A stretch of DNA of 64,000 nucleotides, taken from an uncultured virus (IMG/VR IMGVR_UViG_3300045836_000189) (lineage: Duplodnaviria; Heunggongvirae; Uroviricota; Caudoviricetes). Positions 34,911 to 64,000 of this stretch are shown piece after piece (within the stretch, counting starts at the first letter, position 1; each line of letters begins with the position of its first letter). A model generated the notes under the pieces. The model was given only the letters and a program-made list of their open reading frames with translations, was not told where the DNA came from and did not search any database. The position numbers and the translations under genes are program-made. The stretch covers positions 62,001 to 126,000 of IMG/VR virus record IMGVR_UViG_3300045836_000189; one strand, 5' to 3'.

Positions 34911-35240
34911 TTACTTTTTGTTAATTAGTTCACTAATCTGGTCATAGAGATCAGGGTTTGCATAGAGTGCCCCTGTGACCTTTCTTAAGAAATCTTTCTG
35001 TTGTTCCTGGGTGGCAGTACGCCAGTCCAGTGATGGTCTGTACAGCTCAAAGAAGTCCTGAAACACCCATTCAGTGAGTTTCTCCTGCTTCTCGTGCTGA
35101 AATAGTCCTCTGCCGTCCTTATGTACCTGTGATTTGGTTACTGTCAGGTACGTTCCATATTTGTTATAATCCTTTCCGTGTGATTCACGGAATTGAGGTT
35201 TGAGCCTTACCCTGTCTCCGGGGTTAAATAGGTATTCCAT
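34911..35240 (-). CDS. Small SH3-like protein with helical C-terminus
   Basis: FNPGDRVRLK start motif. Confidence 0.6.
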   Translation of the reverse strand: MEYLFNPGDRVRLKPQFRESHGKDYNKYGTYLTVTKSQVHKDGRGLFQHEKQEKLTEWVFQDFFELYRPSLDWRTATQEQQKDFLRKVTGALYANPDLYDQISELINKK

Positions 35241-35502
35241 GCTCCAATTGCTTACTTAATTTATCCAGGGCTTCTTCAATCTCTTGTATTGAGTAGTACA
35301 ACTCCAGCTCACCTACATATCCTTTCCATCCCGATTGTTCCGGGAAATCAATATAAACCTTCATCCCAAGTGTACTTATAGTTTCATCAGGAAGTAACTG
35401 CCTTATTACACCCACAGATTTTGCAGTAACACTTCCCCAATCGTGATAGGGATTGGTTGCAATAACACGGACTGTGTCTCCCACTTTAAAGTAAGTTTCC
35501 AT
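35224..35502 (-). CDS. SH3-like (HERC2/KEG-repeat-like) head plus shared C-terminal helix
   Basis: FKVGDTVRV...PYHDWGSVTAKSVGVI...IDFPEQSGWKG...ELEL; tail IQEIEEALDKLSKQL. Confidence 0.7.
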   Translation of the reverse strand: METYFKVGDTVRVIATNPYHDWGSVTAKSVGVIRQLLPDETISTLGMKVYIDFPEQSGWKGYVGELELYYSIQEIEEALDKLSKQLEHGIPI

Positions 35503-35779
35503 CTTTCATCCTTTCTTCTAATAGGTCCAACTTTTCCATGAGATCTTCTATATTGAAGATGTCAAGTTTTTCAAAATAGGAGAGGTCAATCCAGGTATTA
35601 GATGAACTTTCCTCATACTTGAAACTCAGTTTATCCGAACCACCTGAATAGTTATCTTTCCGGATGTCTATAACCGTTACATAAGGCATATAGTCCTTTA
35701 CCCATATGGTGCAGTCCTTACCCTCTCTGTATTTTTTTAGAGGTATGATCCTGTCTCCAATCTTAATGTCACTCATCAA
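35486..35779 (-). CDS. SH3-like head plus shared C-terminal helix
   Basis: IKIGDRI...; tail IEDLMEKLDLLEERM. Confidence 0.65.
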   Translation of the reverse strand: MMSDIKIGDRIIPLKKYREGKDCTIWVKDYMPYVTVIDIRKDNYSGGSDKLSFKYEESSSNTWIDLSYFEKLDIFNIEDLMEKLDLLEERMKDGNLL

Positions 35780-36056
35780 GCATCCTTTCTATCTTTTCAT
35801 CCAAAGACCGGAATAGATCCTCTATGGATGGTCCGACCAGTTCATAATACGCACAGGTCCAGCTACCAGTTCTGCCTTTTGTTTTGAATAACCAGTTACC
35901 CTCGGCATTTTTAATAATCTCAGATATAGTGATACCATTTATCAGCAGATTCTTTACTTCAGGATTTTTAATGGTACTAAACCTTTCAAAATATGCATCA
36001 GGATTTCTCAGCCTGACTGTATCCCCTACTTTAAAAGGAGCTTCATTGTCTGTCAT
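35769..36056 (-). CDS. SH3-like head plus shared C-terminal helix (paralog of 36043-36357)
   Basis: PFKVGDTVRLRNPDAYF; tail IEDLFRSLDEKIERM. Confidence 0.65.
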   Translation of the reverse strand: MTDNEAPFKVGDTVRLRNPDAYFERFSTIKNPEVKNLLINGITISEIIKNAEGNWLFKTKGRTGSWTCAYYELVGPSIEDLFRSLDEKIERMLDE

Positions 36057-36357
36057 TTTCCATCCTCCTTATTTTATCGTCAAGAGCATTAAATAAATCT
36101 TCTATAGTAGGATCAGTAAGCTGATAAAACATGCAGCTAAATCCTCCATTAAATCCATATTCAGCAGGATCAAACCTCCATCTTTCTGACCCTTTTGAAT
36201 AGTAGATTTTTTTTATGGTAACTCCTTCGGTTAAGAGAGATACTTTACGTGCCTCTTTCTTGATATGAGGAAATTCATTAAAGTATTCATCCGGATTAAT
36301 TAATCTGACTTTATCTCCTATGTTAAAAGGAGGCTCACCATTTGATTCTGGTTCCAT
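36043..36357 (-). CDS. SH3-like head plus shared C-terminal helix
   Basis: PFNIGDKVRLINPDEYF; tail IEDLFNALDDKIRRM. Confidence 0.65.
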   Translation of the reverse strand: MEPESNGEPPFNIGDKVRLINPDEYFNEFPHIKKEARKVSLLTEGVTIKKIYYSKGSERWRFDPAEYGFNGGFSCMFYQLTDPTIEDLFNALDDKIRRMENDRQ

Positions 36358-37090
36358 TGGCTTGCTGTAATAATTCGTTACACTTCATGAATACATCTTC
36401 ACAATCCCATTCTGCCTGGTTGTTATACGCAGCAGAAGCCGGATGGGATGCAAATAGTTTGTAATGCCTGTCCTCGTCAATGAGATCAGCCAGCTCCTGT
36501 GCTTTCCTGCCCAGGAAGATGAATACCACACCTGAGTTGATCGTGTTCAGCATGTCCAGCAGGTAACTCATGAAAGGTCTCCATATACCCTGATGCTTCC
36601 CAGGACTGCCCAGCTCCACAGAGAGTGCTGTGTTGAGCAGCAACACTCCCTGGTTTGCCCAACGGGTCAGATCAGGATCGCTGCTTGGGATCTCATTTTC
36701 TTCTGAAGGATGCTTGAACGGATCTCCTGCCCACAGGTAAGTGGTCTTGTAAATAGCTTTCAGTATATACTGCAGGCTGGGCTGGGCCTCACCTGTAAGG
36801 GAGCAGGAGAATGCCATTCCGTCGGCAGTTCCAAGTTGTGGGTAGGGATCCTGTCCGACGATGACTACTTTAAGATCCTTGTAAGGGCAGTTCTCAAAAG
36901 CAGAGAACATATGCTTTAAGGGTGGACCAAAACGTCTTCCCTGGGCCCGTTCATCATGCAGGAACTGCAGGATCTTCTCAAAGTCAGAAGCCATCACAAA
37001 TCCCTTCAGTTTGTCCGCCCATCCACTGGGACGGAGTTTGTCTACAAGCTTCGTCTGAATTTCTTGTAGATCAATTGTTGGATTACTCAT
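36335..37090 (-). CDS. ung: Uracil-DNA glycosylase family 1
   Basis: VVIVGQDPYP, ADGMAFS, PSL, WANQGVLLLNTAL, SHPAS. Confidence 0.95.
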   Translation of the reverse strand: MSNPTIDLQEIQTKLVDKLRPSGWADKLKGFVMASDFEKILQFLHDERAQGRRFGPPLKHMFSAFENCPYKDLKVVIVGQDPYPQLGTADGMAFSCSLTGEAQPSLQYILKAIYKTTYLWAGDPFKHPSEENEIPSSDPDLTRWANQGVLLLNTALSVELGSPGKHQGIWRPFMSYLLDMLNTINSGVVFIFLGRKAQELADLIDEDRHYKLFASHPASAAYNNQAEWDCEDVFMKCNELLQQANGTRIKW

Positions 37091-37139
37091 TTTGTAGACT
37101 TATTGTTATATTTGGATTACACCATTAGATAGTTACCCT

Positions 37140-37409
37140 ATGTCTGAAATTCACTACTTACCCAAGGATGCCGTTGTTCCTGTAGAAGTTGGAGCCGGGC
37201 TCCTGTTCCGGCTCCAAAAACTACTACTGTTCCTGGTTCATGATAAAACCAAGGAAGAGCTGGAAGAACTTAAGGAGCGCGTGGAGAAAAACGATGTCCC
37301 CGAAGACAGCTGGATGTTCCACTACATCACTATTCATTCCTTCATTACCATCGTGGAACACCAGGCCATGACCAAAAAGATCACAGTGACCAAAGACCCG
37401 GAAGCTTAA
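37140..37409 (+). CDS. Small hypothetical protein, isolated on the + strand
   Basis: Fills the gap between ung and 37406; preceded by TATATTTG (Bacteroidota -7 box) at ~37108. Confidence 0.6.
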   Translation: MSEIHYLPKDAVVPVEVGAGLLFRLQKLLLFLVHDKTKEELEELKERVEKNDVPEDSWMFHYITIHSFITIVEHQAMTKKITVTKDPEA

Positions 37410-37816
37410 GCAACCGGGTGGTTCACCTGTTCTCCGATCTCCACGGCTGCTTTGATAGCCAGGGAGAGCTCCTCTCTGCTGCAATCACCAAAGGATTTGC
37501 ACTCGAAGTACTCTTTCCCCTGGAGCTTGTAGGTAAAACACAGTCCGGCACGGTCCTTCACCAGTAGCTTTACTTCATGGAAAGTATAGCCTGTGTGATG
37601 GGCCAGCTCCCGGATCATGGCATGTAGCTTGGCCAGTTGCGCCAGGGTACCATCATCATGATACTCCTCCGCCCACAGCTCAATGGTCGTGCCTTCCGGA
37701 AGGTTGTTTCGGAACTGGTCATACAGAGCAGCATCTGCTGTCTTTACATGAATCAGCTTCCCGTTCTCTTTTTTCAGTTTACCGTGATAATGCAGTTTCA
37801 TACTTTTCCAGGTCAA
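37406..37816 (-). CDS. NinB-like recombination protein (tentative)
   Basis: GTLAQLAKLHAMIRELAHHTGYTFHEVK...KSFGDCSREELS. Confidence 0.5.
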   Translation of the reverse strand: MTWKSMKLHYHGKLKKENGKLIHVKTADAALYDQFRNNLPEGTTIELWAEEYHDDGTLAQLAKLHAMIRELAHHTGYTFHEVKLLVKDRAGLCFTYKLQGKEYFECKSFGDCSREELSLAIKAAVEIGEQVNHPVA

Positions 37817-39760: not shown

Positions 39761-39761
39761 G

Positions 39762-40142
39762 TTATGCCTCCTGGTCTTTTTTGATACGTTCCTGTAATTC
39801 CTCAAGAGCTTCTCCTGCAGAAGGGATCTTACCGGCTATATAGTCGGGAGTTCCAATCACAAGGCCCTCTATTTCGGTTGCATCCTGATCCACTACAAGG
39901 CCCCAGCCTAAAGTAAGAATGGAATGAATAAGCGTTTTGTACGGGTCTGCTACAGTAAGCGGATCTCCTGAGTCTGCAGCCTGGAGGCTCAGCTCCTTAT
40001 CTACCTGATACATGCTCAGGACAAGGCAGGCTACTTCCTCACCGGATTTGCCTGTTTGTTTCATTAAGAATTCTACAAACTCTTTTGTACTGATACCGGG
40101 TAATCCCTGGGATTCCACTTGTTCTTTGTTGATTTCTGACAT
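39762..40142 (-). CDS. Hypothetical protein
   Basis: ORF track. Confidence 0.55.
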   Translation of the reverse strand: MSEINKEQVESQGLPGISTKEFVEFLMKQTGKSGEEVACLVLSMYQVDKELSLQAADSGDPLTVADPYKTLIHSILTLGWGLVVDQDATEIEGLVIGTPDYIAGKIPSAGEALEELQERIKKDQEA

Positions 40143-41403: not shown

Positions 41404-41763
41404 TTAGTTGATATAGATCTCTTGCGGCAGATGACCGAATACATACCGGGTTACATCACAGAGCCATGCCTGGAATGGATCAAACAGCTCATTACTGAAG
41501 TGGACATTATAAACAGCTCCTCCTATTTCAGGAGTATCCATTTGTTTTACAAGCTTCACTTTATAACCAGCTGGTATCTTTCCTACAATAAGATCTACTG
41601 TGACCAGATCCTCACCCTGTGCAAGTATTTCACACATACTGTCTGCCCCAGCCACCATTTGTAAATCAGTATAGCTTCCTTCCCATTCAGGGATAACAGC
41701 AAACCAGTCCGAACCATCCTTCTCGAAGGACATGGTGAGTGTATGTTCATCAATTCTTTTCAT
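41404..41763 (-). CDS. DUF6717-like hypothetical protein
   Basis: LQMVAGADSMCE...AWLCDVTRYVFGHLPQEIY. Confidence 0.55.
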   Translation of the reverse strand: MKRIDEHTLTMSFEKDGSDWFAVIPEWEGSYTDLQMVAGADSMCEILAQGEDLVTVDLIVGKIPAGYKVKLVKQMDTPEIGGAVYNVHFSNELFDPFQAWLCDVTRYVFGHLPQEIYIN

Positions 41764-44923: not shown

Positions 44924-45589
44924 TTAAATGATTACTAAATTGGTTTTGTTGATTCTTGTTCTTCCCTTTCTAACTTTTCCATTAAGTTGTTCAAGGAGAG
45001 AGTCATACGTAATATTTAATGCTGTAGATGCTTCACGAATACTATCATAGAAAATACCTGTTGATAGATCAAGTACTATTCTACTGTTTCCGGAGTTTAG
45101 ACTTATTTTTTGCCGTTCCTCTGGAGTTCTTGGAATACCTTTATTCCAAGCTGATTGAACTCCAATTTTTCCCTTGTTCCAGGGAACAGCTCCTGCTTTA
45201 TATCGTTCTTTTAATGTTTCAGACTGCTTTGTGTTTTTAGTACCCCTTTTTGAGTTACTTATTCTTGCTCTTGTTTCATCAGATTGACATTTTTGATCTC
45301 CTTCCTTTGGAAGAAGTAGATTCAAACCCTTGTTTCTATCAAGAACTTGATGCTCTATTCCAAGTTGATACTCCATTCTTAAAACCAGATCAGAGTCACC
45401 CTGCCAAATGATTTCAAGAGTATGGTTCTCAAAACCATATTTTATGAAACTGTTATAGAGTTTTACCTGCTTTTTACAGTCAAGCTTTCTATAAGTATCA
45501 AATCTCTTTTTTGGATTAAGAGTACTTCCGATATAAATCTTACCTGCGGGATTGGTAATCTTATAAACAAATGCAGTTGGAGTAATCAT
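44924..45589 (-). CDS. Free-standing GIY-YIG homing endonuclease with NUMOD3-like and C-terminal HTH modules
   Basis: FVYKITNPAGKIYIGST...R...E...N; PWNKG/AWNKG repeats; FYDSIREASTALNI; visibly AT-rich. Confidence 0.85.
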   Translation of the reverse strand: MITPTAFVYKITNPAGKIYIGSTLNPKKRFDTYRKLDCKKQVKLYNSFIKYGFENHTLEIIWQGDSDLVLRMEYQLGIEHQVLDRNKGLNLLLPKEGDQKCQSDETRARISNSKRGTKNTKQSETLKERYKAGAVPWNKGKIGVQSAWNKGIPRTPEERQKISLNSGNSRIVLDLSTGIFYDSIREASTALNITYDSLLEQLNGKVRKGRTRINKTNLVII

Positions 45590-45664
45590 AGTAGGTATAG
45601 TGTATAAAAAAGCCCGGACTGTCACAGCCCAGGCTTCAACTATATGATTTGAAAGGTAATATGC

Positions 45665-48297: not shown

Positions 48298-48332
48298 AGA
48301 AAGGAGGATTAAGTTCCTCCTTTTTGTTTTTG
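48296..48332. terminator. Bidirectional terminator after the integrase
   Basis: AAAGGAGGA-TTAAGT-TCCTCCTTTTT. Confidence 0.75.
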
Positions 48333-48560
48333 TTCCAGGGTATTCAGGGCTTCCATGATCTGGTCAATGACCGGTGTCTCACGTTTAAGAAAAGTAAAAG
48401 CTTTAACATCCCACATAGGAGATCCGTCACCAGCTTTATAACTCCCAGTATCTTCAATTACTTTGCCCCTGAAGTAGTTTCCTCTTATTTCTTGAACCCT
48501 TACCTTAGTTCCAAGTTTCCCTAACACAATGTCTCCTACTTCAAATGGTATTTCAGACAT
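48309..48560 (-). CDS. SH3-like head plus shared C-terminal helix
   Basis: PFEVGDIV...; tail IDQIMEALNTLEQKQ; start adjusted to MSEIPF. Confidence 0.65.
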   Translation of the reverse strand: MSEIPFEVGDIVLGKLGTKVRVQEIRGNYFRGKVIEDTGSYKAGDGSPMWDVKAFTFLKRETPVIDQIMEALNTLEQKQKGGT

Positions 48561-49320
48561 TGAACTCAACCTCCTTTCTTGAATAATAGGATTTAGCTGC
48601 TCCAAGGAATGCCATGCAAGCAATCTCTGATCTGAAAACAAGTTCTTTAGTATCGGAAGTAAAAGCAGCTTTTTCCATTGACTCTAAGTACAGCTGCTGT
48701 ACAAAATCAAGCTGCGTCATTCTAAGAATTATTTCACTGATCTTGTTGGGGGCACGGCCTAGCTGACCCTTAAAATCAAAATGCTTAAACATAAAGGACT
48801 TATACTCTGATTCTCCTTGCAGCATGTACTGGGGATAATAAAGAGGTCCATTCTGCACATATCGTAGTTTCATTGCCGCTCCTTTCCATCAAGATCCAGT
48901 GATTTGGTGTTAATCATTTCAAAGACATCCACCACATGCCTGGTTTTATCCAGGACACCTTCTCTTAATCCACTCTGAATAGCATCCTTGGGAAAAGTAA
49001 GCCAGGTGGATTTAGGAGTATATCCCCTGGAAACATATTGACCAGTGACCTTGTCACGGATCTTATAGATCTTTTTAACTTTCATCCTTTTGGTTCAATT
49101 CGTCAAACTGTTCTTTGGTAAACGCATAGTGATTGGTAAGACCCCGTTCCCTCTTCCCGTTGATATAATCACACAGGCTCTGGGCCGTGTATTCATCCGT
49201 GCGGAACTGCCAGTTTATGGCTGCTGCTTCTATTTCTTCCGGGAGATTGTGTACTATAGTGAAGCTGCTTCCGTCTGATAGCCGGATCTCCGTTTCAAAG
49301 AATTTCATATCATCCATCAT
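48553..49320 (-). CDS. Three small hypothetical ORFs (48553-48873, 48870-49085, 49075-49320)
   Basis: Overlapping same-strand ORFs. Confidence 0.55.
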
Positions 49321-50759: not shown

Positions 50760-52013
50760 TTACTTGTTTAATTGTGCATCTGTTTCCGGAGTCACATTGA
50801 TATACTTCCCACCAGTACGCTCACAAAGACTTTTCAGCTCATTGTTAGGTCCGTTGTAAAGAGTGATGGCATTGGTCTTCCAGGTAAGCTTGTCTGTCTT
50901 TACACTATCCTGGCCATCGTTGATCACCAGGATCTCCGGCTGATCTACGGACAGGTCAATGTTCAGATTGAACAGCTTGTGGTTTTCCATGATCTCTTTA
51001 CGGATCCTGTCAATGATGAGTCCCACTTCTGTGTCTCCACCACTGGGGCTATTGTTGAAGTGCTTCCAGAACTCCAGGGCAGTCTCCCGGTTATAGATAT
51101 GATACCATTTAAACGTACCATGCTCCAGGTTGTTTTTGGTCAGGAAGAAGCAGAAGAAGATCTCACACTCTTCCTTGATACAGTAAGATAACCTGTCGGC
51201 CACGATGGACATCACCCACTGTTGTTTCTGTGGGGAGTTCATGGATCCTGAAAAATCCACCAGCATGATGATCTTCTGCTTGGACTCTTCACTTGTTACC
51301 GGGGTGTTGACGATCAGGTCCTTGGTTACCAGTTTCTGGTTGAAGTTGGGCATCATACGCTGATACAGCTGGCTGTTTACCAGCTCACCATATTCTGCCA
51401 TCCTTTTCTGCTTGTGTACCTGGGAGTTGGTCACCCTTCTCTCATGCACCACCTTCTTGATCTCAAAGCTCTTACCGAAGGCTTCCACCATGGCAATCCG
51501 CTGCATCATATCCAGCCTTTTATCAAAGTCCTGCATGTCTGCCCGGTTGTCAAAGAGCTCATTTATAGTAGAAGACTCAAACTGCTCCTCATCCGGCACG
51601 CCAACAAATACCTCTGTGAGGTCTTTCTCCGTCATCTTATCCGGGGAAGGCATAGCTCCGCCCTTTTGTTTCTGCTTCCGCTTCATCAGCATGAGCAGGT
51701 TCATAGCCTTGTCCAAAGGAGAGATGCCAGGAACAAACTTGGTCCTTAAAGCCTCATAGAATCCTTCCTTGGCGTTTGCCCTTTCCAGCTCCTCCGGGCT
51801 TAACTTAGCCGGATCTTTGTATTTGTCTTCCACGATGTCATAGGACATCACCATCTTGTGGTAGAAGAAACGGGCCAGCTCTTTGGCCACATGGGTATTC
51901 TGCAGGTCAAGACCCTTGCGGTGGAGAGTGCTCTCCACCACATAGGTCATTGGGGTCCAGTAATACTCATGTTCCCGTATGTAAAAATCTTCTTGCTTAT
52001 TTCTCAATAACAT
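50760..52013 (-). CDS. VWA (MIDAS) domain protein; partner of MoxR AAA no. 2
   Basis: MLVDFSGSM, SGGDT, LVINDGQD, LKSLCERTGGKY. Confidence 0.85.
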   Translation of the reverse strand: MLLRNKQEDFYIREHEYYWTPMTYVVESTLHRKGLDLQNTHVAKELARFFYHKMVMSYDIVEDKYKDPAKLSPEELERANAKEGFYEALRTKFVPGISPLDKAMNLLMLMKRKQKQKGGAMPSPDKMTEKDLTEVFVGVPDEEQFESSTINELFDNRADMQDFDKRLDMMQRIAMVEAFGKSFEIKKVVHERRVTNSQVHKQKRMAEYGELVNSQLYQRMMPNFNQKLVTKDLIVNTPVTSEESKQKIIMLVDFSGSMNSPQKQQWVMSIVADRLSYCIKEECEIFFCFFLTKNNLEHGTFKWYHIYNRETALEFWKHFNNSPSGGDTEVGLIIDRIRKEIMENHKLFNLNIDLSVDQPEILVINDGQDSVKTDKLTWKTNAITLYNGPNNELKSLCERTGGKYINVTPETDAQLNK

Positions 52014-53136
52014 CTTGGATCTCCTTCAGTTTAGATTGTAAGAATTTTTCATAACCGGATACGCGGCCACTGATCTGTTTCATCAACTCGTCATCCACCT
52101 TCTTGGCTTTCAGGGTCTGAATATCCGCATGGATCTCTTTCAGTACCACTTTGGCACGACGAACATTGTCCAGGGAATTCAGGGTAATACCGTTAGCTTC
52201 CTTGATGTTACCATCAATTTTAGCTATCAGGTCCTCAATCACCTGTACATTTTTGTACTTGGAGATCTCAGCATCCACCAGGGATTTATTCTTGCCAGAG
52301 AAATCTGCCATGAACTTCAGGCCGCCCATATCACCACCAGTCTTCTCCAGGATACGGGCTGCTTTAATGGCAGTACGCGGAGAAACCACGGTTCCGTTCT
52401 GAGCCAGTTTTTCCATGATATAAGAGAGCTGGCTGAATGGCTTGCCGAACATTTTGTTGAACATGAAGGAATAAGTATCCTTAGTGTATGCATTCCACTC
52501 TACTTTATACTCTAAAGGAAAACGCTCCATGAGGGCCTTCAATGAGTCATTCTTGGTGAACTCTTCACGGGTCTTGTTAGTACAGCACACGATAAGCTTG
52601 GTCTTGATCTCAAATACCTGTGTACCGTTACGGAACTTACCGGAGGTCAGGATGTCTTTTAACTGTTCCAGGATATAATCCGGAGCATCCATCAACTCTT
52701 CAAAGATCACGTACTCAAAGTTCATGAAAGAGTTTTCTACCAGGAACTCCAGGGCACCTGTGTCATTGAACTTCTTGATGTCAATGCCACCAAACAGGGA
52801 ATCGGTAGTAGTCCCGCTACCCATTGTCTTTACAAACGGCTCAATACCTTTTGATTCAAAGAAGTATTCAGTGAACTCTGATTTACCGTGACCGCCTTTA
52901 CCAAACAGGATGATATTCTCTCCGGTCAGGAGTGCCAAATCAAGGGCCTTGTTCAGATCTTCCATGAACACGAACTTGGTAGGATCTGATTTGGTTTTTG
53001 GAGCAGCAGCAGGAGCTTCTGCAGGAGCAGGAGTTTCTTTTCCGGTTTCAGCTTGAGCTGATTTGTTTTTTAACATGCTTGGTGCTTTGATAGCCACACC
53101 ATTGGTTTTCTTTACTGCTGTTTCAGTGGTACTCAT
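51997..53136 (-). CDS. MoxR-like AAA+ ATPase no. 2
   Basis: GKGGHGKS, VIFEELMDAP, CCTN, ALMERF, SPRTA; start adjusted to MSTTET. Confidence 0.85.
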   Translation of the reverse strand: MSTTETAVKKTNGVAIKAPSMLKNKSAQAETGKETPAPAEAPAAAPKTKSDPTKFVFMEDLNKALDLALLTGENIILFGKGGHGKSEFTEYFFESKGIEPFVKTMGSGTTTDSLFGGIDIKKFNDTGALEFLVENSFMNFEYVIFEELMDAPDYILEQLKDILTSGKFRNGTQVFEIKTKLIVCCTNKTREEFTKNDSLKALMERFPLEYKVEWNAYTKDTYSFMFNKMFGKPFSQLSYIMEKLAQNGTVVSPRTAIKAARILEKTGGDMGGLKFMADFSGKNKSLVDAEISKYKNVQVIEDLIAKIDGNIKEANGITLNSLDNVRRAKVVLKEIHADIQTLKAKKVDDELMKQISGRVSGYEKFLQSKLKEIQDVIEK

Positions 53137-53170
53137 GATTTTTGTGTTGATTAAATAGTGAATTATTTTG

Positions 53171-53455
53171 TTAACTGTTTTTTGCTTGTAGCTGTAAAGC
53201 CAGCTGGTCAAGGGCTGACTCAATTAGAATAATAGTGTCGGAGAGGGAATCTTTAGCAAGTTCTCTCCAGTAGTAACGACCTTCCTGGCCGTCCTCCCAG
53301 CGGACTTCTGCACCTATATCGGAGATCCATTTTGTGATGATCCCCTTTTTACCCTCTCCTCTCTTGGTTCGGTCGTTGCTGGATTTTATTCCTTCCTCAG
53401 AGATGATAACCTTTGTTCCTACCGGACCAGTACTTTGGGTAAGGTGCTTAGACAT
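53171..53455 (-). CDS. SH3-like head plus shared C-terminal helix
   Basis: VGTKVII...GIIT...EVRWEDG...Y; tail IILIESALDQLALQL. Confidence 0.65.
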   Translation of the reverse strand: MSKHLTQSTGPVGTKVIISEEGIKSSNDRTKRGEGKKGIITKWISDIGAEVRWEDGQEGRYYWRELAKDSLSDTIILIESALDQLALQLQAKNS

Positions 53456-53783
53456 AGAACGGACTGAGTTTTTGCTTTTGCTTTTTCTCGTGCCTGTCCA
53501 GCTCTATGAGTGTCTGGCGGATCAGCTCCGCACAGTTATCACACTTCTCCTGGAGGATCTTCTCTTCTGAGGGAACATATACCAGTTCCTTCATGTAATA
53601 GGCTTCCCGGTGACCGTTGGACCACAGCACGTAGCATGTGTTTCCACTACTACCATCAAGTGTCCCGATCATACCTTTACCATTTTTAATACGGTCTTCA
53701 TGGGGAGGTGCGGTGGGACTTAACTCTATCTCAGCCCCCTTCTGGTAGTTTCCTTCGTTTACCTGGACTTTTTGTTTTGTCAT
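53448..53783 (-). CDS. SH3-like head plus weaker shared C-terminal helix
   Basis: KGAEIEL...GMIG...YVLWSNG...Y; tail IRQTLIELDRHEKKQ. Confidence 0.6.
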   Translation of the reverse strand: MTKQKVQVNEGNYQKGAEIELSPTAPPHEDRIKNGKGMIGTLDGSSGNTCYVLWSNGHREAYYMKELVYVPSEEKILQEKCDNCAELIRQTLIELDRHEKKQKQKLSPFYV

Positions 53784-55054: not shown

Positions 55055-55357
55055 TTAGTCCTCATCATAGAGGATAGTGAACAACATTTTTTCTTCTAAC
55101 TTCTCCAGCCCCGCATCCAGTTCACCGAAGATGCTGTCCAGGCTGGACATTGACTCATTATTGGCCCATTCCACACGGTATCCCTTTCCCAGTTTTTCGT
55201 TATACTTCTTGTCCCAGTCATCTATGTGATAAGTGTATTTGGTTCCGGCAGTACCTACTTTTCCGTAGGTTGCCACGAACTGATTTCCACTAATCTCTTC
55301 CATTTCATAGAACTTATGACTGGAACCGTCCTTAAAAACGAGTCTTGCTTTTTTCAT
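55055..55357 (-). CDS. WGR-domain protein plus shared C-terminal helix
   Basis: SSHKFYEM...ATYGKVGTAG...EKLGKGY; tail LDSIFGELDAGLEKLEEKM. Confidence 0.8.
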   Translation of the reverse strand: MKKARLVFKDGSSHKFYEMEEISGNQFVATYGKVGTAGTKYTYHIDDWDKKYNEKLGKGYRVEWANNESMSSLDSIFGELDAGLEKLEEKMLFTILYDED

Positions 55358-55890: not shown

Positions 55891-56946
55891 TTATACCATG
55901 AACCGATAAGGAGCTGTGAATTTCAGGACGATCTTATGGAATGGAGGATCGTCTGTCTGACTACCATTGTACTCAATAAGCAGGTCTTTCTCTTCCTGAG
56001 TAACTTTACATTCAGCAAGCCTTACCTGGCAGCGGTAATTATTTACTTCCGGTTCTATATCATTATCTGCATCAAAGCCCTCTGGTAATTTTGGATACTT
56101 ACTACGGTTAAATAAGAACATTTCGGTATCCCCGGATATTTCTACAAAGGATTGCCACTCCCACTTGCCGTCTACCAGCTCATTTACTTCGTATCTCCGA
56201 TTGGTGCTCTCCAGGTTCAGGTGGGCAGCACAGGCTATAGCATCTTCATTAAAAAGATTCATCTCTTTAATAAGATTTACCAGCAGGTCAAACGTCTGCA
56301 TGTTGGTTTTCCGGAAAAATTTAAAGATGGAAGCCTTGTGTGCTTTGTTTACCAGCAAGTCATCTATTACTTCATTCATAGTGGCTTCATCCAGATCCGT
56401 GTAATCCTTACGGTATTTAACCCTGTTTAGCCTGTTCATGAGGAAGTTATTGATCTTCATCTCATTAACAGTCAGCAGGAATATAAACCGGGTAGGATAG
56501 TTCCCATCCATCAAAAGAAGTAAATCATTACTCTTATCACCATTGGGATAGATCTTTTCAAATTCATCAATGAAGATGATAGCATCCGGATACTGGGTCA
56601 GGTAGTCAATAAAGTCACTACCAAAGAATGGTTCAGTAATCATGATTACCGGCTTACCGGAATCAATACAGAACTTCTGGGCAGTAATGGTTTTACCAGA
56701 GCCTTTTAGTCCGGAAAGAATGATACCCATGTTTTTCTCCGAGTTGTGCTCGTATGATTTCATCCACCGCTCAATAATGCTTTGGTCTCCGTAAATTTTT
56801 TTAGGGAGTCTGAAATTCTCTTTCTGCACCAGGTAGTAACCATCCCTGGGATCAAACTTCAGCATGTAATTACCCGGAGGCAGGGAATCATGAGTGTTGG
56901 ATACGTTTGCTGTCTTAAAGACACCATTTGATTCAATGATTTTCAT
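55891..56946 (-). CDS. AAA+ ATPase no. 3
   Basis: GLKGSGKT, IFIDEFEK, LLLLMDG, LTVN, NRLNRVKY; start adjusted to MKIIES. Confidence 0.85.
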   Translation of the reverse strand: MKIIESNGVFKTANVSNTHDSLPPGNYMLKFDPRDGYYLVQKENFRLPKKIYGDQSIIERWMKSYEHNSEKNMGIILSGLKGSGKTITAQKFCIDSGKPVIMITEPFFGSDFIDYLTQYPDAIIFIDEFEKIYPNGDKSNDLLLLMDGNYPTRFIFLLTVNEMKINNFLMNRLNRVKYRKDYTDLDEATMNEVIDDLLVNKAHKASIFKFFRKTNMQTFDLLVNLIKEMNLFNEDAIACAAHLNLESTNRRYEVNELVDGKWEWQSFVEISGDTEMFLFNRSKYPKLPEGFDADNDIEPEVNNYRCQVRLAECKVTQEEKDLLIEYNGSQTDDPPFHKIVLKFTAPYRFMV

Positions 56947-57042
56947 ATAATTATCTGTACGGATTAATGGAGTGACAAAACAATAGCCGGTAGCGGTCAC
57001 CACCGGCTATAAATAGTTTAAATGATGGTTAGTGTTACAGGC

Positions 57043-59628: not shown

Positions 59629-59719
59629 GTTCTTTTAAAGATTGGGTAAAAATAATAAGATTCTGTAGAATACCAAAAAACTTCTACAGTTTAAACCTAA
59701 AAAATTTGTAGAGTTAGGC

Positions 59720-60139
59720 TTATTTGGACAGCTCTTTCACCAGCCTGTCAATGATTTGCTCAGAGGTTTCACCGGCCTCATTCTGGAAATGCTCTACAAG
59801 AATCCGGTCTTTCAGATCCTCTACGTCTACATTTTTTCCAGCAGCCTGGAAATTCGGAGTATAATATCCTTGTTCATCTCTGCTGTATCCAAATCCGGTT
59901 ACCTGAACATCTTTAGTGGTGAATGCTTTTACAAAAGCTGCTTTGGTATCTTGTACTTTTTGAGCGGCAGCCTTAATTACAGCTTTTTCATCATCCACAG
60001 CTTTCTTATAAGCTTTATACTCTTTTGAAGACTGGTAGCTTTTCTTTACAGCTTCCACATTTGCTCTCTGAGCTTCTTCAATTCTGTTTTTTACTTGGTT
60101 AGCTAAGGCTTTAGCTACGGGTACGGTTAACTTTTTCAT
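59720..60139 (-). CDS. Hypothetical Lys/Ala-rich protein
   Basis: ORF track. Confidence 0.6.
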   Translation of the reverse strand: MKKLTVPVAKALANQVKNRIEEAQRANVEAVKKSYQSSKEYKAYKKAVDDEKAVIKAAAQKVQDTKAAFVKAFTTKDVQVTGFGYSRDEQGYYTPNFQAAGKNVDVEDLKDRILVEHFQNEAGETSEQIIDRLVKELSK

Positions 60140-60173
60140 TTTGGTTTTTTAATAAGAATGGATTATTAATTAG

Positions 60174-60515
60174 TTATTTCAGCTGTTCAGCTAATTGGTC
60201 AAGAGCTTTGTCAATTTCCTCTATATAGTTAGTAGCATAAGAGAGGGCCTGAAACCTCTTACGGCAATAGTATCCGGCACCAAGTCCCAGGTTCTCATCA
60301 TTGGTGATATTATCCCAATGGACGTATACAATGGTTCCTTTTTTCTTTTTTCCAAATGTATTTTGGTCTACATAGTTCGGACCTATGGCTGTGATGGTGC
60401 CCTCCGTAACGTTGGCATAATGACCAGTGAAATATCCGGGAGCTTTCCCCCAGTCTGGTCCTTTTGTTACCCGGTCTCCAATACTTGCTTCCGGGGCATA
60501 AACAGGCTTGTTCAT
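60174..60515 (-). CDS. MIB/HERC2-like head plus shared C-terminal helix
   Basis: IGDRVTKGPDW...GTI...VHWD; tail IEEIDKALDQLAEQL. Confidence 0.7.
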   Translation of the reverse strand: MNKPVYAPEASIGDRVTKGPDWGKAPGYFTGHYANVTEGTITAIGPNYVDQNTFGKKKKGTIVYVHWDNITNDENLGLGAGYYCRKRFQALSYATNYIEEIDKALDQLAEQLK

Positions 60516-60811
60516 GATTTTTGTAGTTTTTCTTCCAGCTTATCAAGGGCTTCTGTGAGTTCATCCAGGGACGGAGGTTCATCAAGGTAATACAGGTCAT
60601 AATAACCAGCATGTCCCACTCTGTAATTCCAAATAACCTTGGAGCCTTCCCACTGTACATCTGCCCAAAAGCCTGTACTAATTGATTCGCTCACAAGGGT
60701 GCCTGTTCCTGTACCTCCTCCATGTATATCCTGGTCACCCCATTCCCAGTCTCTACCCCGTTTTACACGAGCTCCTTTCCTGTAGTTCTCAGGAGTTACC
60801 GGTATCTTCAT
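60512..60811 (-). CDS. MIB/HERC2 domain plus shared C-terminal helix
   Basis: GARVKRGRDWEWGDQD..GG..GT...DVQWE...NYRVG..G.YDL; tail LDELTEALDKLEEKL; start adjusted. Confidence 0.8.
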   Translation of the reverse strand: MKIPVTPENYRKGARVKRGRDWEWGDQDIHGGGTGTGTLVSESISTGFWADVQWEGSKVIWNYRVGHAGYYDLYYLDEPPSLDELTEALDKLEEKLQKS

Positions 60812-61106
60812 CACTGCTCCTTTCCAGCTTGGAAGCAAGCCTGTTCAGAGCAGCTTCAATATCCTTAAACTCTACTTCGGGGTAGATCAGAGGAATCTTT
60901 CCAGACTTTATCTGGTACCCTGGCCATATCCCTTTGGCAAGCTGTGGAAATCCTTTCCATTTTACCTGGATGATTTCTGAGTACTTGTGGATCTCTACAA
61001 TCCTGCCCTTTTTTACTCCTTTAAACCGGGAATCGTGAGGTCCCCAGTCCGGACCGGGAGCCACTATGTCTCCAATTTTGGCAGTATTAACGTTAACTGG
61101 TTTCAT
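60789..61106 (-). CDS. MIB/HERC2-like head plus shared C-terminal helix
   Basis: IGDIVAPGPDW...QVKW; tail FKDIEAALNRLASKL. Confidence 0.7.
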   Translation of the reverse strand: MKPVNVNTAKIGDIVAPGPDWGPHDSRFKGVKKGRIVEIHKYSEIIQVKWKGFPQLAKGIWPGYQIKSGKIPLIYPEVEFKDIEAALNRLASKLERSSDEDTGNS

Positions 61107-61407
61107 GATTTATCCTTTCTTGCTTTTCAATGAGTTTCTCCACTTCCTGGAATAAGGTTGTTAAATCCTCTGTAGTTGAATCATAGACTGACAGTTCGTA
61201 TTTTCCCGCCGCTCCAATTCGGTAAGAATAGTTGAATCCTCCTGGTTTCCACCTCACATCAGCATACCATCCGGCAATGTCATCACATACTTCGGTAATA
61301 ATACCATACTGACTAACACCAACGTGATGATTCTCCGAATGATTCCAATCAGGGCCTTTGCAGACTTTCATGCCTACAAAAGCATTTTCATGCGTCACCT
61401 TTTCCAT
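61093..61407 (-). CDS. MIB/HERC2-like head plus shared C-terminal helix
   Basis: VGMKVCKGPDW...DVRWKPG...SYRIGAAGKYEL; tail LTTLFQEVEKLIEKQ. Confidence 0.75.
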   Translation of the reverse strand: MEKVTHENAFVGMKVCKGPDWNHSENHHVGVSQYGIITEVCDDIAGWYADVRWKPGGFNYSYRIGAAGKYELSVYDSTTEDLTTLFQEVEKLIEKQERINHETS

Positions 61408-62009
61408 AGAACTTTACTCATCAGATACAGTGTTTCTATAAATATCCTGGGGATACTCAGCAGGAACTTCTTGATCTTCCTGGGAAGACGTAGCAGCCAG
61501 GCTATCAGGTTACCATGCTTTTTACCCAGCATGATGTCTGCCTGGATCTGGTCCAGTCCATCCATGATCTGTTCAATGGTCTCCTGTTTCTTCTCCACTG
61601 TAGATTCAGATACATCTTCTGCTGGAAGGGTAGCACCTGTGTAAACAGGTTTTGAGAAAGAGGAAGATTTACCATGTGCAGCCAGGAAGTTATCTTTGTA
61701 TTCCTGCCATTGATCCACGGTTGGGAATCCTTTTCCAGGAGAAAGTTCCTGTTCATAAACATGCCTTAAATCATGCCGTGAACTGAGTCCTGTTCTATAT
61801 TTAGCTGACTTTCCATTATCCCATTCTACTTCACAGTACAAGCCGTTCTTAAACACAATAACAATAGTCCCCATGGTTCCGGGAAGCATCTCATATATAG
61901 TGAAGGGAAAGTCAAAAGTGGTATCCCTGAACCAATCGGGGCCACCCGCCATTACTCTTAGTCCGACTCTTACTTCATCATAGCGTACAGGATCTCCTGG
62001 TTTTAACAT
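61395..62009 (-). CDS. MIB/HERC2-like head, internal shared helix and basic amphipathic C-terminal extension
   Basis: VGLRVMAGGPDW...GTI...EVEWDNGKSAKYRTG...HDLR; IEQIMDGLDQIQADI; LIAWLLRLPRKIKKFLL. Confidence 0.7.
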   Translation of the reverse strand: MLKPGDPVRYDEVRVGLRVMAGGPDWFRDTTFDFPFTIYEMLPGTMGTIVIVFKNGLYCEVEWDNGKSAKYRTGLSSRHDLRHVYEQELSPGKGFPTVDQWQEYKDNFLAAHGKSSSFSKPVYTGATLPAEDVSESTVEKKQETIEQIMDGLDQIQADIMLGKKHGNLIAWLLRLPRKIKKFLLSIPRIFIETLYLMSKVLWKR

Positions 62010-62335
62010 TGGTTTCCTCCTTTCTGCTCTGCCACTTTAAGCAGGAGCAGATCCAGATTAAAATAGATTTGTTCAATAACAGGGAGCTGCTTCACCAGAT
62101 TCCTGGGAAGGTCTCTAATGGATACCTTGAAGTACTTATTCTTCCTGTTATTCTTACAGCCCCAGGCATACTTGATTTCTTCAAACCTGAGTTTTTTGTT
62201 GTGTGTGATCTCTTTAACTGTCAGCACCTGTCCCGGCTTTACCCAGGACTGCTCACAGTCATTTAGTATTTTGATTTTGCAGCCTATAAGGGACTGGCTG
62301 ATTTCAGGATGGATAAGATCTTCATAAGTAGCCAT
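62003..62335 (-). CDS. SH3-like head plus shared C-terminal helix (paralog of 62338-62646)
   Basis: LIGCKIKILN...GQVLTV...WGCKNN; tail IEQIYFNLDLLLLKV. Confidence 0.65.
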   Translation of the reverse strand: MATYEDLIHPEISQSLIGCKIKILNDCEQSWVKPGQVLTVKEITHNKKLRFEEIKYAWGCKNNRKNKYFKVSIRDLPRNLVKQLPVIEQIYFNLDLLLLKVAEQKGGNQC

Positions 62336-62337
62336 AA

Positions 62338-62646
62338 TTAACTCAGTTTATCTTCTAGCCGCTCCAGATGAAGTAGTATATCATCCATCAGCGGTGAGAG
62401 TGCTTTATCAATATGTTTTAACTCATAGATCATCTCCTGACCTTCCAGTACCTGGAATAATTTTCTACCGGAGTTATTGGCACATGACCAGTAACGGCCT
62501 CCTATTTCCTTGATACCCAGGTTCTTTGACCGGTATCCGGAAACAGTATAGATCTGTCCATTCTTCAGGCGTTCAAACCCATTGTTGTTCAGGATCAGGA
62601 TCTGTTTGCCTATTAACTCCCTGCAGGCATCCGGGAAATAGCTCAT
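62338..62646 (-). CDS. SH3-like head plus shared C-terminal helix
   Basis: LIGKQILILN...GQIYTV...WSCANN; tail MDDILLHLERLEDKL. Confidence 0.65.
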   Translation of the reverse strand: MSYFPDACRELIGKQILILNNNGFERLKNGQIYTVSGYRSKNLGIKEIGGRYWSCANNSGRKLFQVLEGQEMIYELKHIDKALSPLMDDILLHLERLEDKLS

Positions 62647-62756
62647 GATGATTGAAATTGAATACAGTACTAAATGGTAAAGCATGACAGACCAAACCTG
62701 GAGAGGAGTGGATATTACTACCCCTGTGTCCCCATTAAGCCTGCCATGCTTATGTC

Positions 62757-63116
62757 CTACTTCTTTGCTTTCAAAGCTTCCAGTTTCCGGTTCAGCAGAT
62801 ACTTGGCCACTGGTTCATAAGCACGTAAAAGCACATAGTGAACCATCCCCTGGATAGCACACATTATAAAGGCCGTAAACAAGAAGTTGTACAGCCAGTA
62901 GTGTGATACTACCACCACAGGGAGATCGCTCGTCAGAAGCAGGATAAACACGCACCAGTGGCCAAAGCACCAGGGACAGTGAATCAGGTCTTCTATCTTT
63001 TGATTGAGAGGGCTGATCCACTCCCGGAATGGTTTGAAGATACCGGTGGATGTGACGGTGAAGGAGATGGAAGCACAGCATAGTGCTCCCATGACCAGGA
63101 ATAGGAACTCTTTCAT
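62757..63116 (-). CDS. DUF1360-like membrane protein
   Basis: IFKPFREW...LIHCPWCFGHW plus hydrophobic segments. Confidence 0.65.
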   Translation of the reverse strand: MKEFLFLVMGALCCASISFTVTSTGIFKPFREWISPLNQKIEDLIHCPWCFGHWCVFILLLTSDLPVVVVSHYWLYNFLFTAFIMCAIQGMVHYVLLRAYEPVAKYLLNRKLEALKAKK

Positions 63117-63117
63117 G

Positions 63118-63420
63118 TTATATTACCTCATCAGCTTCTTCAAGGCCATCTTCCGAAATCCGGTCCCCATCCTGCAGATCTGAGTCTTCAGGGACTTCCC
63201 TTAAGATCTCAAAGTCTGATCCTCCACATCCACAACCTGAGTACACCACCAGCCTTACTTTGCGGGTCTTTGGCATATAAGCTCCCAGAATGTCCTCTAT
63301 ACTCATCTCTTCTGCCTTTTTGATCACAGGAGCTTTTTCCTGTTCCTTGTGGAACTCTTCTCTCAGTTGGGCCAGGTTGTCCTTCTCCTGACCGGCTTTA
63401 CGGTTTTTAAGCTTTTGCAT
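63118..63420 (-). CDS. Small acidic protein with CGCGG motif
   Basis: YSGCGCGGS; overlaps the ATPase stop codon. Confidence 0.6.
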   Translation of the reverse strand: MQKLKNRKAGQEKDNLAQLREEFHKEQEKAPVIKKAEEMSIEDILGAYMPKTRKVRLVVYSGCGCGGSDFEILREVPEDSDLQDGDRISEDGLEEADEVI

Positions 63421-64000
63421 AACTTGAGTTTATTAATTTGATTGATTCTTCCAGGTCTGCTGCAGTAACCCCCTTAGGAGTTTTCTTGGTAGTAGTCATC
63501 CTGGTCAGGGCTTTGCGTACAGCACCTTTGGCAATGGCTTCCACCATAGCTCCCGATACTTTACTCTTACAGGGAAGACTAAATAACATATCAGCTCCTT
63601 TGATGGCCAGGTCTTCTACCTTGTCATGGCATTTTACCTTCTTAAGGTGGATCTCAAAGATCTCCTTGGTATCCGGGTGATCCGGACGGTTGATGCCAAT
63701 CTTCAAGTCTATCCTTCCTTCCCGGACAATAGCCTCATCCAGTGCATTAGGGAGATTAGTGGCCAGGATGAAGATGGGATTGTGCTCTTTTTCCAGTCCG
63801 TCCATTTCTGAAAGGAACGTAGGCACAATGGTCATCTCCACGTCTGATGATTTACCGCTGCCTCTCTGACGGAGCAGGGCTTCTGCTTCATCCATGAATA
63901 CAACTGCACGCTGGCCGGTCTTTTTACAGTACTGGCGGGTAGCATGGAACATGTGGGCTACTTTCTGCTCTGCCTCACCTACGAACTTACTCAGCATCTC
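63407..64000 (-). CDS. ARC/Mpa (proteasomal-type) AAA+ ATPase, C-terminal part; 5'-truncated by the window edge
   Basis: SKFVGEAE pore loop, VVFMDEAE Walker B, RGSGKSSDVEMTIVPTFLSEMDG, ATN...LDEAIVREGRID.KI.I.RPD, SGAMV. Confidence 0.8.
   Translation of the reverse strand, partial: EMLSKFVGEAEQKVAHMFHATRQYCKKTGQRAVVFMDEAEALLRQRGSGKSSDVEMTIVPTFLSEMDGLEKEHNPIFILATNLPNALDEAIVREGRIDLKIGINRPDHPDTKEIFEIHLKKVKCHDKVEDLAIKGADMLFSLPCKSKVSGAMVEAIAKGAVRKALTRMTTTKKTPKGVTAADLEESIKLINSSYAKA

Follow-up and report, generated by a model that had tools for sequence, protein, structure and literature searches.

Small phage proteins with varied heads and a shared C-terminal helix: a candidate family of modular binders in a large tailed phage

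Introduction

The MIB/HERC2 domain is a peptide-binding SH3-like barrel. Among the factors that deliver proteins to AAA+ machines, Pup docks as a helix on the coiled coil of Mpa, and SspB docks on ClpX by a C-terminal peptide. Proteasomal ATPases are characterised by an N-terminal coiled coil plus an OB domain, and by a C-terminal proteasome-docking motif. In phages, MoxR-vWA pairs have been proposed as assembly chaperones, and WGR is given as a DNA-binding domain of MolR-like regulators, both in one published account (PMC7824862). Here we analyse a window of 64,000 nucleotides, bases 62001-126000 of the 136,295-bp virus record IMGVR_UViG_3300045836_000189, which encodes a family of small proteins whose varied N-terminal domains (heads) are followed by one conserved helical motif (the tail). 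A preliminary description of this DNA had taken the tail for a docking helix by which the proteins would deliver host proteins to phage AAA+ ATPases encoded nearby, or to another common hub.

The genome encodes a family-A DNA polymerase, a primase, a DnaB-like helicase, lysis enzymes and two giant polyvalent open reading frames (ORFs), genes by which it can be recognised as a large tailed phage. That the host belongs to the Bacteroidota is hinted at by an integrase of Bacteroidota style encoded in the window (Pfam) and by a weak match of the DNA to crAss-like phages of Bacteroides. A sister genome (G001) is complete, 136,320 bp long with direct terminal repeats, and shows 96-99% DNA identity over the region compared. 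Coordinates of the minus-strand family ORFs are window positions unless marked as genome positions, and members are named by their low coordinate.

Results

Members of the family

All 15 of the 15-residue tails quoted in the preliminary description were found letter for letter in minus-strand ORFs, at the low coordinates it gave. Fourteen of these ORFs encode 92-115 amino acids (aa), with the motif 1-11 residues from the C-terminus. In the fifteenth, 61395-62009, the copy had been described as internal, and this was borne out: the ORF is 204 aa long and its motif lies 45 residues from the end.

Tails were scored with a leave-one-out position matrix against 17,242 windows from the 83 non-family genes of the window, and the motif beat this background. 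Nine of the 15 tails outscored every background window, and the other six were matched or beaten by just 2-6 windows. In all 15 proteins the annotated tail was the best-scoring window of its own sequence. Among non-family genes, two windows scored 14 or more, against 0.1 expected from 50 shuffles.

An out-of-sample scan with the matrix, covering all 715 genome ORFs of 45 aa or longer, added four minus-strand ORFs from outside the window. They encode about 100-116 aa and end 2-6 residues after the motif. This brings the family in this genome to 19 members, about a tenth of its genes. In addition, a paralog with a degenerate tail, 34911, has to be placed beside the 15 members of the earlier list, all of which stand. 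It matches 35486 by BLASTP (E 0.004), hhalign relates it to the 35769 class at 60% and to the 35224 class at 44%, and its C-terminus aligns with the tails. The genes are as follows.

34911..35240, minus strand: degenerate paralog, 109 aa, SH3/REP-like head class, truncated degenerate tail after an insertion of about 24 aa
35224..35502, minus strand: member, 92 aa, tail 35245-35289; leave-one-out score 22.0, with 0 of the 17,242 background windows as high
35486..35779, minus strand: member, 97 aa (likely start ATG at 35776), tail 35507-35551; leave-one-out score 27.3
35769..36056, minus strand: member with SH3/REP-like head, 95 aa, tail 35781-35825
36043..36357, minus strand: member, 104 aa, tail 36061-36105; 46% identical to 35769
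48309..48641, minus strand: solitary member, 110 aa as the longest ORF (the sister product, P0007, has 82 aa), tail 48324-48368; leave-one-out score 23.2
53171..53455, minus strand: member with MIB-like head, 94 aa, tail 53189-53233, directly upstream of MoxR no. 2; leave-one-out score 14.7
53448..53783, minus strand: member with MIB-like head, 111 aa, weak tail 53478-53522; leave-one-out score 7.7, with 5 background windows as high
55055..55357, minus strand: member with WGR head, 100 aa, tail 55085-55129; leave-one-out score 19.0, with 0 background windows as high
60174..60515, minus strand: member, 113 aa, tail 60180-60224; leave-one-out score 27.3
60512..60838, minus strand: member with MIB_HERC2 head, 99 aa from the ATG at 60811, tail 60524-60568
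60789..61106, minus strand: member, 105 aa, tail 60825-60869; leave-one-out score 18.4
61093..61407, minus strand: member with MIB_HERC2 head, 104 aa, weak tail 61120-61164; leave-one-out score 6.9
61395..62009, minus strand: long member, 204 aa, consisting of a MIB-like head, a linker, the internal tail 61533-61577 and a basic, hydrophobic C-terminal extension of 45 aa
62003..62335, minus strand: member sharing its own head class with 62338, 110 aa, tail 62033-62077; leave-one-out score 9.0
62338..62685, minus strand: member of the head class of 62003, 115 aa (102 aa from an internal ATG), tail 62344-62388; leave-one-out score 11.8
Genome 2711-3025, 3029-3331, 135453-135794 and 135787-136137, minus strand: extra members outside the window, from the matrix scan

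The tail motif

The tail consensus is I-[DE]-x-[IL]-x-x-A-L-[DN]-x-L-E-x-K-L, an acidic amphipathic helix of 15-17 residues with heptad a/d spacing. Hydrophobic residues had been placed at positions 1, 4, 8 and 11. This holds at position 1 (19 of 19 tails), position 4 (18 of 19, I or L) and position 8 (19 of 19, L or V), and less strictly at position 11, which is L or I in 16 of 19. Position 15 is also hydrophobic in 16 of 19. Position 9 is D, N or E in every tail, as had been stated. Away from these positions, Ala occupies position 7 in 11 of 19 tails, and K, R or Q occupies position 14 in 18 of 19. The heptad periodicity of a coiled coil was found, with positions 1, 4, 8, 11 and 15 hydrophobic in 19, 18, 19, 16 and 16 tails. 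The length was not: the two predicted helices, residues 82-98 and 78-94 of their proteins, span 17 residues each, and as a rule of thumb a stable free-standing coiled coil needs about 3-4 heptads.

None of the 19 tails contains a proline. The tail is preceded by a short hinge that often contains Pro, Ser or Thr, and in 10 of the 19 members a proline lies no more than four residues before the tail, which suggests a hinge between head and tail.

Synonymous codons varied at the conserved columns. L8 is encoded by CTG, CTT, TTG, TTA and CTC, I1 by ATA, ATT and ATC, and D9 by GAT and GAC. Because of this codon diversity, the conservation must lie at the protein level; a DNA repeat is excluded, and a promoter as the cause was rejected on the same ground. 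Consecutive family genes in the clusters 35224-36357 and 60174-62685 overlap by 4-23 nt, so the start region of the following gene also encodes the variable residues after each helix. Purine-rich GAA/AAA codons are frequent at tail positions 12-14, just upstream of that start, and may aid translation of the downstream gene.

Several motif-like matches outside the family were rejected. Those inside the 1714-aa and 4707-aa polyvalent proteins were attributed to chance, as they were not kept at a score of 14 or more in the sister genome. The match in MoxR no. 2 (residue 174) has a proline and falls, by reading of the sequence, in the Walker B region. A 126-aa ORF at 39762-40142, with a different and apparently helical N-terminus, scores 10.8 on the matrix for a tail-like stretch that stops six residues short of its end, and could be a remote member of the family or one in decay.

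The heads

The heads had been called dissimilar. It is correct that the tail occurs on unrelated domains; it is not the case that all heads differ, since about nine are MIB_HERC2-like and about five to six are SH3/REP-like. Head-only BLAST of 49 sequences, taken from this genome, the sister genome and outside homologs, gave 13 clusters, which hhalign merged to at least five classes: the MIB_HERC2-like class (about 9), the SH3/Mind-bomb-REP-like class (about 5-6), two unassigned classes of two members each, and one WGR. The MIB class was joined by 61395 (85%) and by 2711/3029 (65%). The 35769 head was joined by 35224 (81%), 34911 (60%) and 48309 (53%), and 135453 was joined to 135787 (58%). The 35224 head can be aligned over its full length to 60512 and 60789, and 62003 and 62338 are paralogs (E 1e-7). 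No homology could be detected between the WGR, MIB_HERC2-like, 135453-type and 62003-type heads, all of which carry the same tail.

Two members exceeded the Pfam MIB_HERC2 (PF06701) cut-off of 33.5 bits, 60512 (51.2) and 61093 (41.9). Member 61395 reached 21.1 bits, under this cut-off, and at E <= 0.01 MIB_HERC2 was absent from the other 13 family ORFs scanned. Member 36043 matched Pfam SH3_15, the Mind bomb REP domain, at 16.7 bits, under the cut-off of 24. Member 55055 matched Pfam WGR (PF05406) at 29.7 bits against a cut-off of 22, over residues 4-62, with the tail at residues 77-91 outside the match. No PHROGs family was found for 14 of 16 family ORFs scanned, no PADLOC match for three family members, and no F-box family at E <= 0.01 (Pfam) in 59 proteins scanned.

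Structure models were consistent with a barrel followed by a helix. The AlphaFold2 (AF2) model of 60512, with a predicted local distance difference test score (pLDDT) of 80.7, consists of a beta-barrel plus a helix at residues 82-98. Its Foldseek ranks 1-4 were 2dk3, 4xi6, 3dkm and 4xi7, modest matches with E 0.003-0.011 and 34-38% identity; 2dk3 is the HECTD1 Mib-herc2 domain, and 4xi6 and 4xi7 are MIB1 MZM domains. VIA gave Z scores of 7.2 and 6.8, also modest. These matches span residues 3-81 only, so the known MIB_HERC2 fold does not include the helix. Member 35769 was likewise modelled (pLDDT 83.4) as a barrel plus a helix, at residues 78-94. Its top Foldseek match was the MIB1 REP domain 4tse, at a weak E of 0.11, and it is SH3-like in fold only. 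ESM Atlas and BFVD gave weak SH3-like leads only.

Across the paralogs the tail is better conserved than the head. Tails had a mean pairwise identity of 0.35 and heads one of 0.18, and of 153 paralog pairs 129 were more similar in the tail. The motif is genuine: it lies at the C-terminus, is conserved as protein sequence and occurs on unrelated heads.

In the long member 61395-62009, the C-terminal extension (window 61395-61532) is basic, strongly hydrophobic and 99.5% conserved in the sister genome. It could be a membrane anchor or a helix-binding element. A nearby ORF, 62757-63116, also looks membrane-embedded and has a weak DUF1360 match.

Comparison with the sister genome

The sister genome carries 20 tail genes, and one whole family gene is missing from the genome analysed here. 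In four ortholog pairs between these genomes, which are 96-99% identical, the heads are 33-55% identical and the tails are kept at 9-13 of 15 positions. Two of the replaced heads are those of 35486 (39% identity, tail 10/15) and 60174 (33% identity, tail 10/15). Whole heads have been exchanged between near-identical genomes with the tail retained, and family genes have been gained and lost in cassette fashion.

Over 11 collinear family orthologs, pN/pS (the ratio of nonsynonymous to synonymous polymorphism) was 0.21. Other genes gave 0.09 (131 genes), and small ones 0.11 (63 genes). The WGR member 55055 differs from its counterpart by seven synonymous and no nonsynonymous changes. The family genes are real and under purifying selection, which is somewhat relaxed. 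They are also more diverged than other genes (median 95 vs 99.1, Mann-Whitney P = 0.007). The family was considered as a divergence hot-spot, and this was rejected in favour of general mosaicism.

Some non-family genes also have no sister counterpart. They lie at 44924-45625, 41404-41763 and 59720-60139 and include GIY-YIG/NUMOD3 homing-endonuclease-like, DUF6717 and 139-aa genes, the last of which adjoins the big tail cluster. Their absence from the sister genome indicates active turnover of cassettes.

Homologs elsewhere

A profile of 18 members was compared with 1.84 billion representatives at E <= 0.001 and gave 87 matches. Long multi-repeat MIB_HERC2 proteins aligned to the head part only, while small proteins of about 100 aa aligned to head plus tail. 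Nine of these small head-plus-tail proteins come from neither genome (P0050, P0054, P0055, P0060, P0065, P0067, P0069, P0083 and P0085); they are singletons from other metagenome assemblies (Logan, SRC, JGI). On the tail matrix, eight of the nine reached at least 9, at a site 1-6 residues before the C-terminus, and the ninth was weak. The outside homolog of 53448 (P0085) retains the C-terminal tail, and that of 62338 (P0060) retains the C-terminal helix.

MIB_HERC2 heads without the tail were found in one 122-kb viral contig and six metagenome loci. Scans of viral contigs with 60512, a narrower family alignment, P0069 and P0067 returned only the sister genome and the 122-kb contig. Matches at two metagenome loci (L028, L029) were unrelated coiled-coil-like stretches. 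A scan of GTDB genomes with the narrower alignment returned nothing, and word-indexed protein searches, with 60174, the family alignment or the WGR member as query, had no matches outside this phage and its sister. The family profile also found nothing in six distant records (G002-G007: five relatives by DNA polymerase, at 39% identity, and the 122-kb contig); the sister genome, as a control, gave 20 matches. In 924,435 bases of 80 other viral loci there was one marginal C-terminal tail-like match, on the opposite strand. A full-text literature search found no paper that describes MIB_HERC2 or SH3 families of phages whose members have a tail in common.

The neighbouring ATPases

The domain and ATPase assignments of the preliminary description (MIB_HERC2, WGR, MoxR, ARC/PAN-like) proved largely right. 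The genes concerned, with the UDG gene that borders the first family cluster, are these.

33099..34691, minus strand: MoxR-type AAA+ no. 1, 530 aa; Pfam bpMoxR (PF20030) 89.2 bits against a cut-off of 27, AAA_5 49 bits
31338..33089, minus strand: partner of MoxR no. 1, putatively VWA-like, 583 aa; DxSxS-like motif, no Pfam match
51997..53223, minus strand: MoxR-type AAA+ no. 2, 408-aa ORF with likely start M30 at 53136; bpMoxR 58.2 bits against a cut-off of 27
50760..52013, minus strand: partner of MoxR no. 2, putatively VWA-like, 417 aa; DxSxS-like motif
55891..57003, minus strand: AAA ATPase no. 3, 370 aa; Pfam AAA E 1.4e-7, phrog_2376 'ATPase' E 4.8e-66
63407..64000, minus strand: ARC/PAN/Cdc48-like classical AAA+, of which the C-terminal 196 aa lie in the window; the whole gene is genome 125407-126660 (L001:407-1660), 417 aa
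36335..37090, minus strand: UDG-superfamily gene (Pfam UDG)

Neither MoxR partner matched vWA at E <= 0.1, and PDB phmmer returned nothing for them. The homolog of the MoxR no. 2 partner in locus L117 matched VWA_CoxE at 19.9 bits (cut-off 26.4), and one homolog in L113 matched the VWA-like DUF2201 at E 0.059. For AAA no. 3, comparisons with PDB and NCBIfam gave no PDB sequence match and no unfoldase assignment.

The ARC-like ATPase was closest to VAT/p97 by PDB phmmer (about 1e-74), ahead of Mpa/ARC (about 1e-48). It fell under the NCBIfam cut-offs for pup_AAA (231 vs 504.75 bits) and for PAN PRK03992 (171 vs 500). By reading, its N-terminus has a short coiled-coil-like stretch followed by a beta-rich region, and the PAN profile aligns from residue 84. 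It is of the single-ring type and has no hydrophobic-Tyr-X C-terminal end. Its relatives in IMG/VR were limited to the sister genome.

Family genes do lie near ATPase genes as had been described; the significance of this is modest and was assessed post hoc. Gene order was shuffled within the 132-gene non-structural block, with thresholds chosen after seeing the data, and the mean distance to the nearest AAA+ gene was not significant (P = 0.15). Three of the seven tail clusters lie 7-28 genes from any AAA+ gene. The largest cluster, of seven genes, follows the ARC/PAN-like ATPase on the same strand.

Conservation of the neighbourhood was most informative for MoxR no. 1. IMG/VR contains 97 relatives of it; leaving aside the sister genome, 79 loci (L037-L115) with homologs 55-59% identical were examined. 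The helicase, a 136-aa protein, UDG, MoxR and the partner are syntenic in 73-79 of these 79 loci, and the partner adjoins the MoxR homolog in 79 of 79. A homolog of any of the five small genes beside MoxR no. 1 was found in 0 of 79. The gap between UDG and MoxR, with a median of 248 bp in 74 loci, is about 1.64 kb here and holds five family genes. Since the block is kept in 79 loci without tail genes, the cluster is a lineage-specific insertion beside MoxR no. 1 and not a conserved partner of it. At least one family cluster has been inserted into an otherwise conserved helicase-UDG-MoxR-partner block.

This junction (window 34691-36335, and near position 5000-6000 of the loci L037-L115) is a variable insertion site over the 79 contigs. 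Most have about 250 bp there, and some hold unrelated cargo, for example a GIY-YIG-like ORF in L109 and ORFs of about 200 aa in L097 and L107.

The sole relative of MoxR no. 2 (L117) has no tail gene upstream (0 of 1). What lies there, at L117:1-186, is a truncated ORF whose end resembles ClpS-type adaptors, by reading only. The scan for tails described above covered the 79 MoxR loci plus L117, or 924 kb. The co-occurrence of tails and ATPases that the preliminary description expected was not observed for the MoxR no. 1 family (0 of 79), the only ATPase family broadly testable, nor for MoxR no. 2 (0 of 1). The ARC-like gene is absent from G002-G006, and bpMoxR is absent from G002, G004, G006 and G007; this shared absence of family, MoxR and ARC-like genes amounts at most to a single lineage event. 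A functional tie of the family to the neighbouring MoxR ATPases is not supported.

Other genes of the window

The plus strand holds two giant ORFs at window 63-11861 (genome 54569-73861). The first encodes 4707 aa when followed through the whole genome, the second 1714 aa. In keeping with a polyvalent protein, the second has an ADP-ribosyltransferase domain (ART-PolyVal); it is only 68% identical to its sister-genome counterpart. At 12050-12508 lies a cREC_REC (cyclic-phosphate processing receiver) protein (73.9 bits), 76% identical to the sister version, in a stretch, 12050-13159, that is diverged as a whole. A tyrosine integrase at 47182-48297, whose N-terminus is of the Arm-DNA-bind_5 type, lies on the plus strand inside the minus-strand early region and adjoins the solitary family gene 48309-48641. 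Just past it, the DNA at about 48536-49102 is not common to the sister genome.

Discussion

The data are best accommodated by an accessory, lineage-specific multigene family whose members are modular binders and share a helix for intermolecular association, a reading to which we give a probability of roughly one half. The general logic of the preliminary description, a variable head joined to a constant and portable C-terminal module, is upheld by the same tail on unrelated heads, by tails more conserved than heads, by tails retained where the sister genome has strongly diverged heads, and by MIB heads elsewhere that have no tail. The N-terminal module would be a small beta-barrel or other compact binding head, with a target specificity that differs from head to head. 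The tail helix would be a portable element for intermolecular association, making the same interaction in every member, whether with a single partner surface common to all or with other members' tails. As a whole, the family would supply multi-specific binders from the early/replication arm, most plausibly directed against proteins of the host or of rival elements. The a/d heptad pattern fits helix-helix packing. Because the off-core residues A7, D/N9, E12 and K14 are conserved across the paralogs, a shared partner or association across the family is favoured over independent homo-oligomers.

Several observations weigh against this reading. The helix has about two heptads, which is short for a coiled coil that is to be stable by itself. 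Divergence from the sister genome is not special to the family, as 34 of 175 other genes also fall below 90% identity. The positions of the genes leave some room for a link to the ATPases: four of the seven tail clusters lie within three genes of an AAA+ gene (P = 0.014, shuffled gene order), and both MoxR genes have a tail gene no more than two genes upstream (P = 0.011, shuffled gene order). The helix might also pack against the head of its own protein, in the manner of chromo- or PWWP-like barrels, which we regard as very unlikely for the reasons given below.

The rival that comes nearest to the favoured reading holds that the tail serves self-association only, as an ancestral dimer or tetramer element with which each paralog acts alone, without a common partner or cross-talk. 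Small DNA- or peptide-binding domains such as WGR commonly need a dimerisation helix. The heptad pattern, with I or L at positions 1, 4, 8, 11 and 15, would serve this purpose, and many heads are true paralogs, so that shared ancestry explains part of the tail similarity. The description of WGR as a DNA-binding domain of MolR-like regulators, in PMC7824862, points the same way. Inheritance alone is insufficient, however, since the tail is also found on heads without detectable homology; conservation of the non-core A7, D/N9, E12 and K14 over 19 paralogs and outside homologs is more than self-association needs, and the helix has only about two heptads. We consider this explanation unlikely. A helix that acts within the molecule, packing on the head's beta-sheet merely to stabilise a very small domain, would explain the fairly high pLDDT of the helix in single-chain models (71-88) and the presence of Royal-family barrels with a packed C-terminal helix (chromo, PWWP) among the weak structural neighbours. 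It is very unlikely, as judged from the same helix with the same specific residues on different folds including WGR, its greater conservation than that of the heads, the existence of related MIB_HERC2 heads without it, its omission from matches to solved MIB_HERC2 domains, and the proline within four residues upstream in 10 of 19 members, which suggests a hinge. A nucleotide-level element (a repeat, a recombination site or an A-rich translation-initiation region) might in principle impose the amino-acid pattern, as in the clusters the 3' end of one gene overlaps or abuts the next start codon and positions 12-14 are often GAA/AAA. This is largely refuted by the many synonymous codons at conserved columns; solitary and cluster-final genes and outside homologs keep the motif too, and pN/pS is 0.21. 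We consider it extremely improbable.

In the AAA+ adaptor model, tails would dock head-bound host proteins on the N-terminal coiled coil of the PAN/ARC-like ATPase, or on a MoxR-VWA pair, for unfolding or remodelling. The docking modes of Pup and SspB provide precedents. The model draws further on the two proximity tests above, on the seven-gene cluster that follows the ARC/PAN-like ATPase on the same strand, and on the closeness of that ATPase to Cdc48/VAT and proteasomal-ATPase unfoldases, with a coiled-coil-like N-terminal stretch by reading. The family, both MoxR genes and the ARC-like gene are also jointly absent from the records examined for each, in effect one event. Against it, none of the 79 MoxR no. 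1 loci has the adjacent small genes, 924 kb contain at most one marginal tail match, the cluster was inserted at a junction where other phages have different cargo, and no tail gene precedes the only MoxR no. 2 relative. Moreover, three of the seven clusters are 7-28 genes from AAA+ genes, the mean distance is not significant (P = 0.15) and the adjacency thresholds were post hoc. AAA no. 3 is without an unfoldase assignment, and the coiled-coil stretch of the ARC-like ATPase is, by reading, net acidic like the tails. The model is, on balance, unlikely. A bolder form of it, in which the tails plug about 20 interchangeable heads into one machine, be it the PAN/ARC-like unfoldase, a MoxR-partner pair with a metal site that binds the invariant acidic residue at position 9, or a hijacked host AAA+ protease, appears distinctly doubtful. 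If it were true, the family would be a programmable library for targeted unfolding or degradation of host defence proteins, and the head swaps between strains would record an arms race.

Under the favoured reading of modular binders with a shared association helix, this is an undescribed family in which eukaryote-type peptide-binding barrels (MIB_HERC2 and Mind-bomb REP-like) and one WGR are joined to a single conserved helix. Eukaryotic viruses and intracellular bacteria use families of this design, a variable binder plus a constant handle, to hijack hubs of their hosts. In a phage, such a family would point to a new hub, of the host or of the phage itself, and it would offer a natural scaffold, compact at about 100 aa, with which chosen targets could be recruited.

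Comparison with known systems

The heads are most like the MIB/HERC2 domains of Mind bomb 1, HERC2 and HECTD1: two members lie above the Pfam cut-off, and the model of 60512 superposes on 2dk3, 4xi6 and 4xi7. Unlike those proteins, the phage proteins are single domains of about 100 aa, without ZZ, REP, ankyrin, RING or HECT domains, and with an extra C-terminal helix. In overall design, they resemble the poxvirus ankyrin/PRANC F-box-like proteins and the cellular F-box receptors, which have many paralogs, a variable N-terminal binder and a short constant C-terminal module; the turnover of heads between close strains is a further likeness. There is no sequence relation, however. The phage module is one helix of 15-17 residues compared with the three-helix F-box, and it belongs to a bacteriophage and not to a eukaryotic virus.

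The AAA+ delivery factors SspB and Pup share with the family a binding domain, a flexible hinge, a short terminal element and AAA+ genes nearby. They differ in that the tails have no sequence similarity to SspB or Pup motifs, and in that the family does not co-occur with the MoxR no. 1 family in 79 loci. Paxillin LD motifs and AKAP helices are similar in length, acidity and the L-D-x-L core within an amphipathic helix, an analogy of form only. Finally, the two MoxR genes here, each followed by a partner with a DxSxS-like motif and with the pair kept in 79 of 79 loci, resemble the phage MoxR-vWA pairs described in PMC7824862. Such pairs exist widely without the tail family, and the vWA assignment here is below the Pfam cut-offs. 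The MoxR pairs are accordingly to be seen as neighbours of the family rather than as parts of it.

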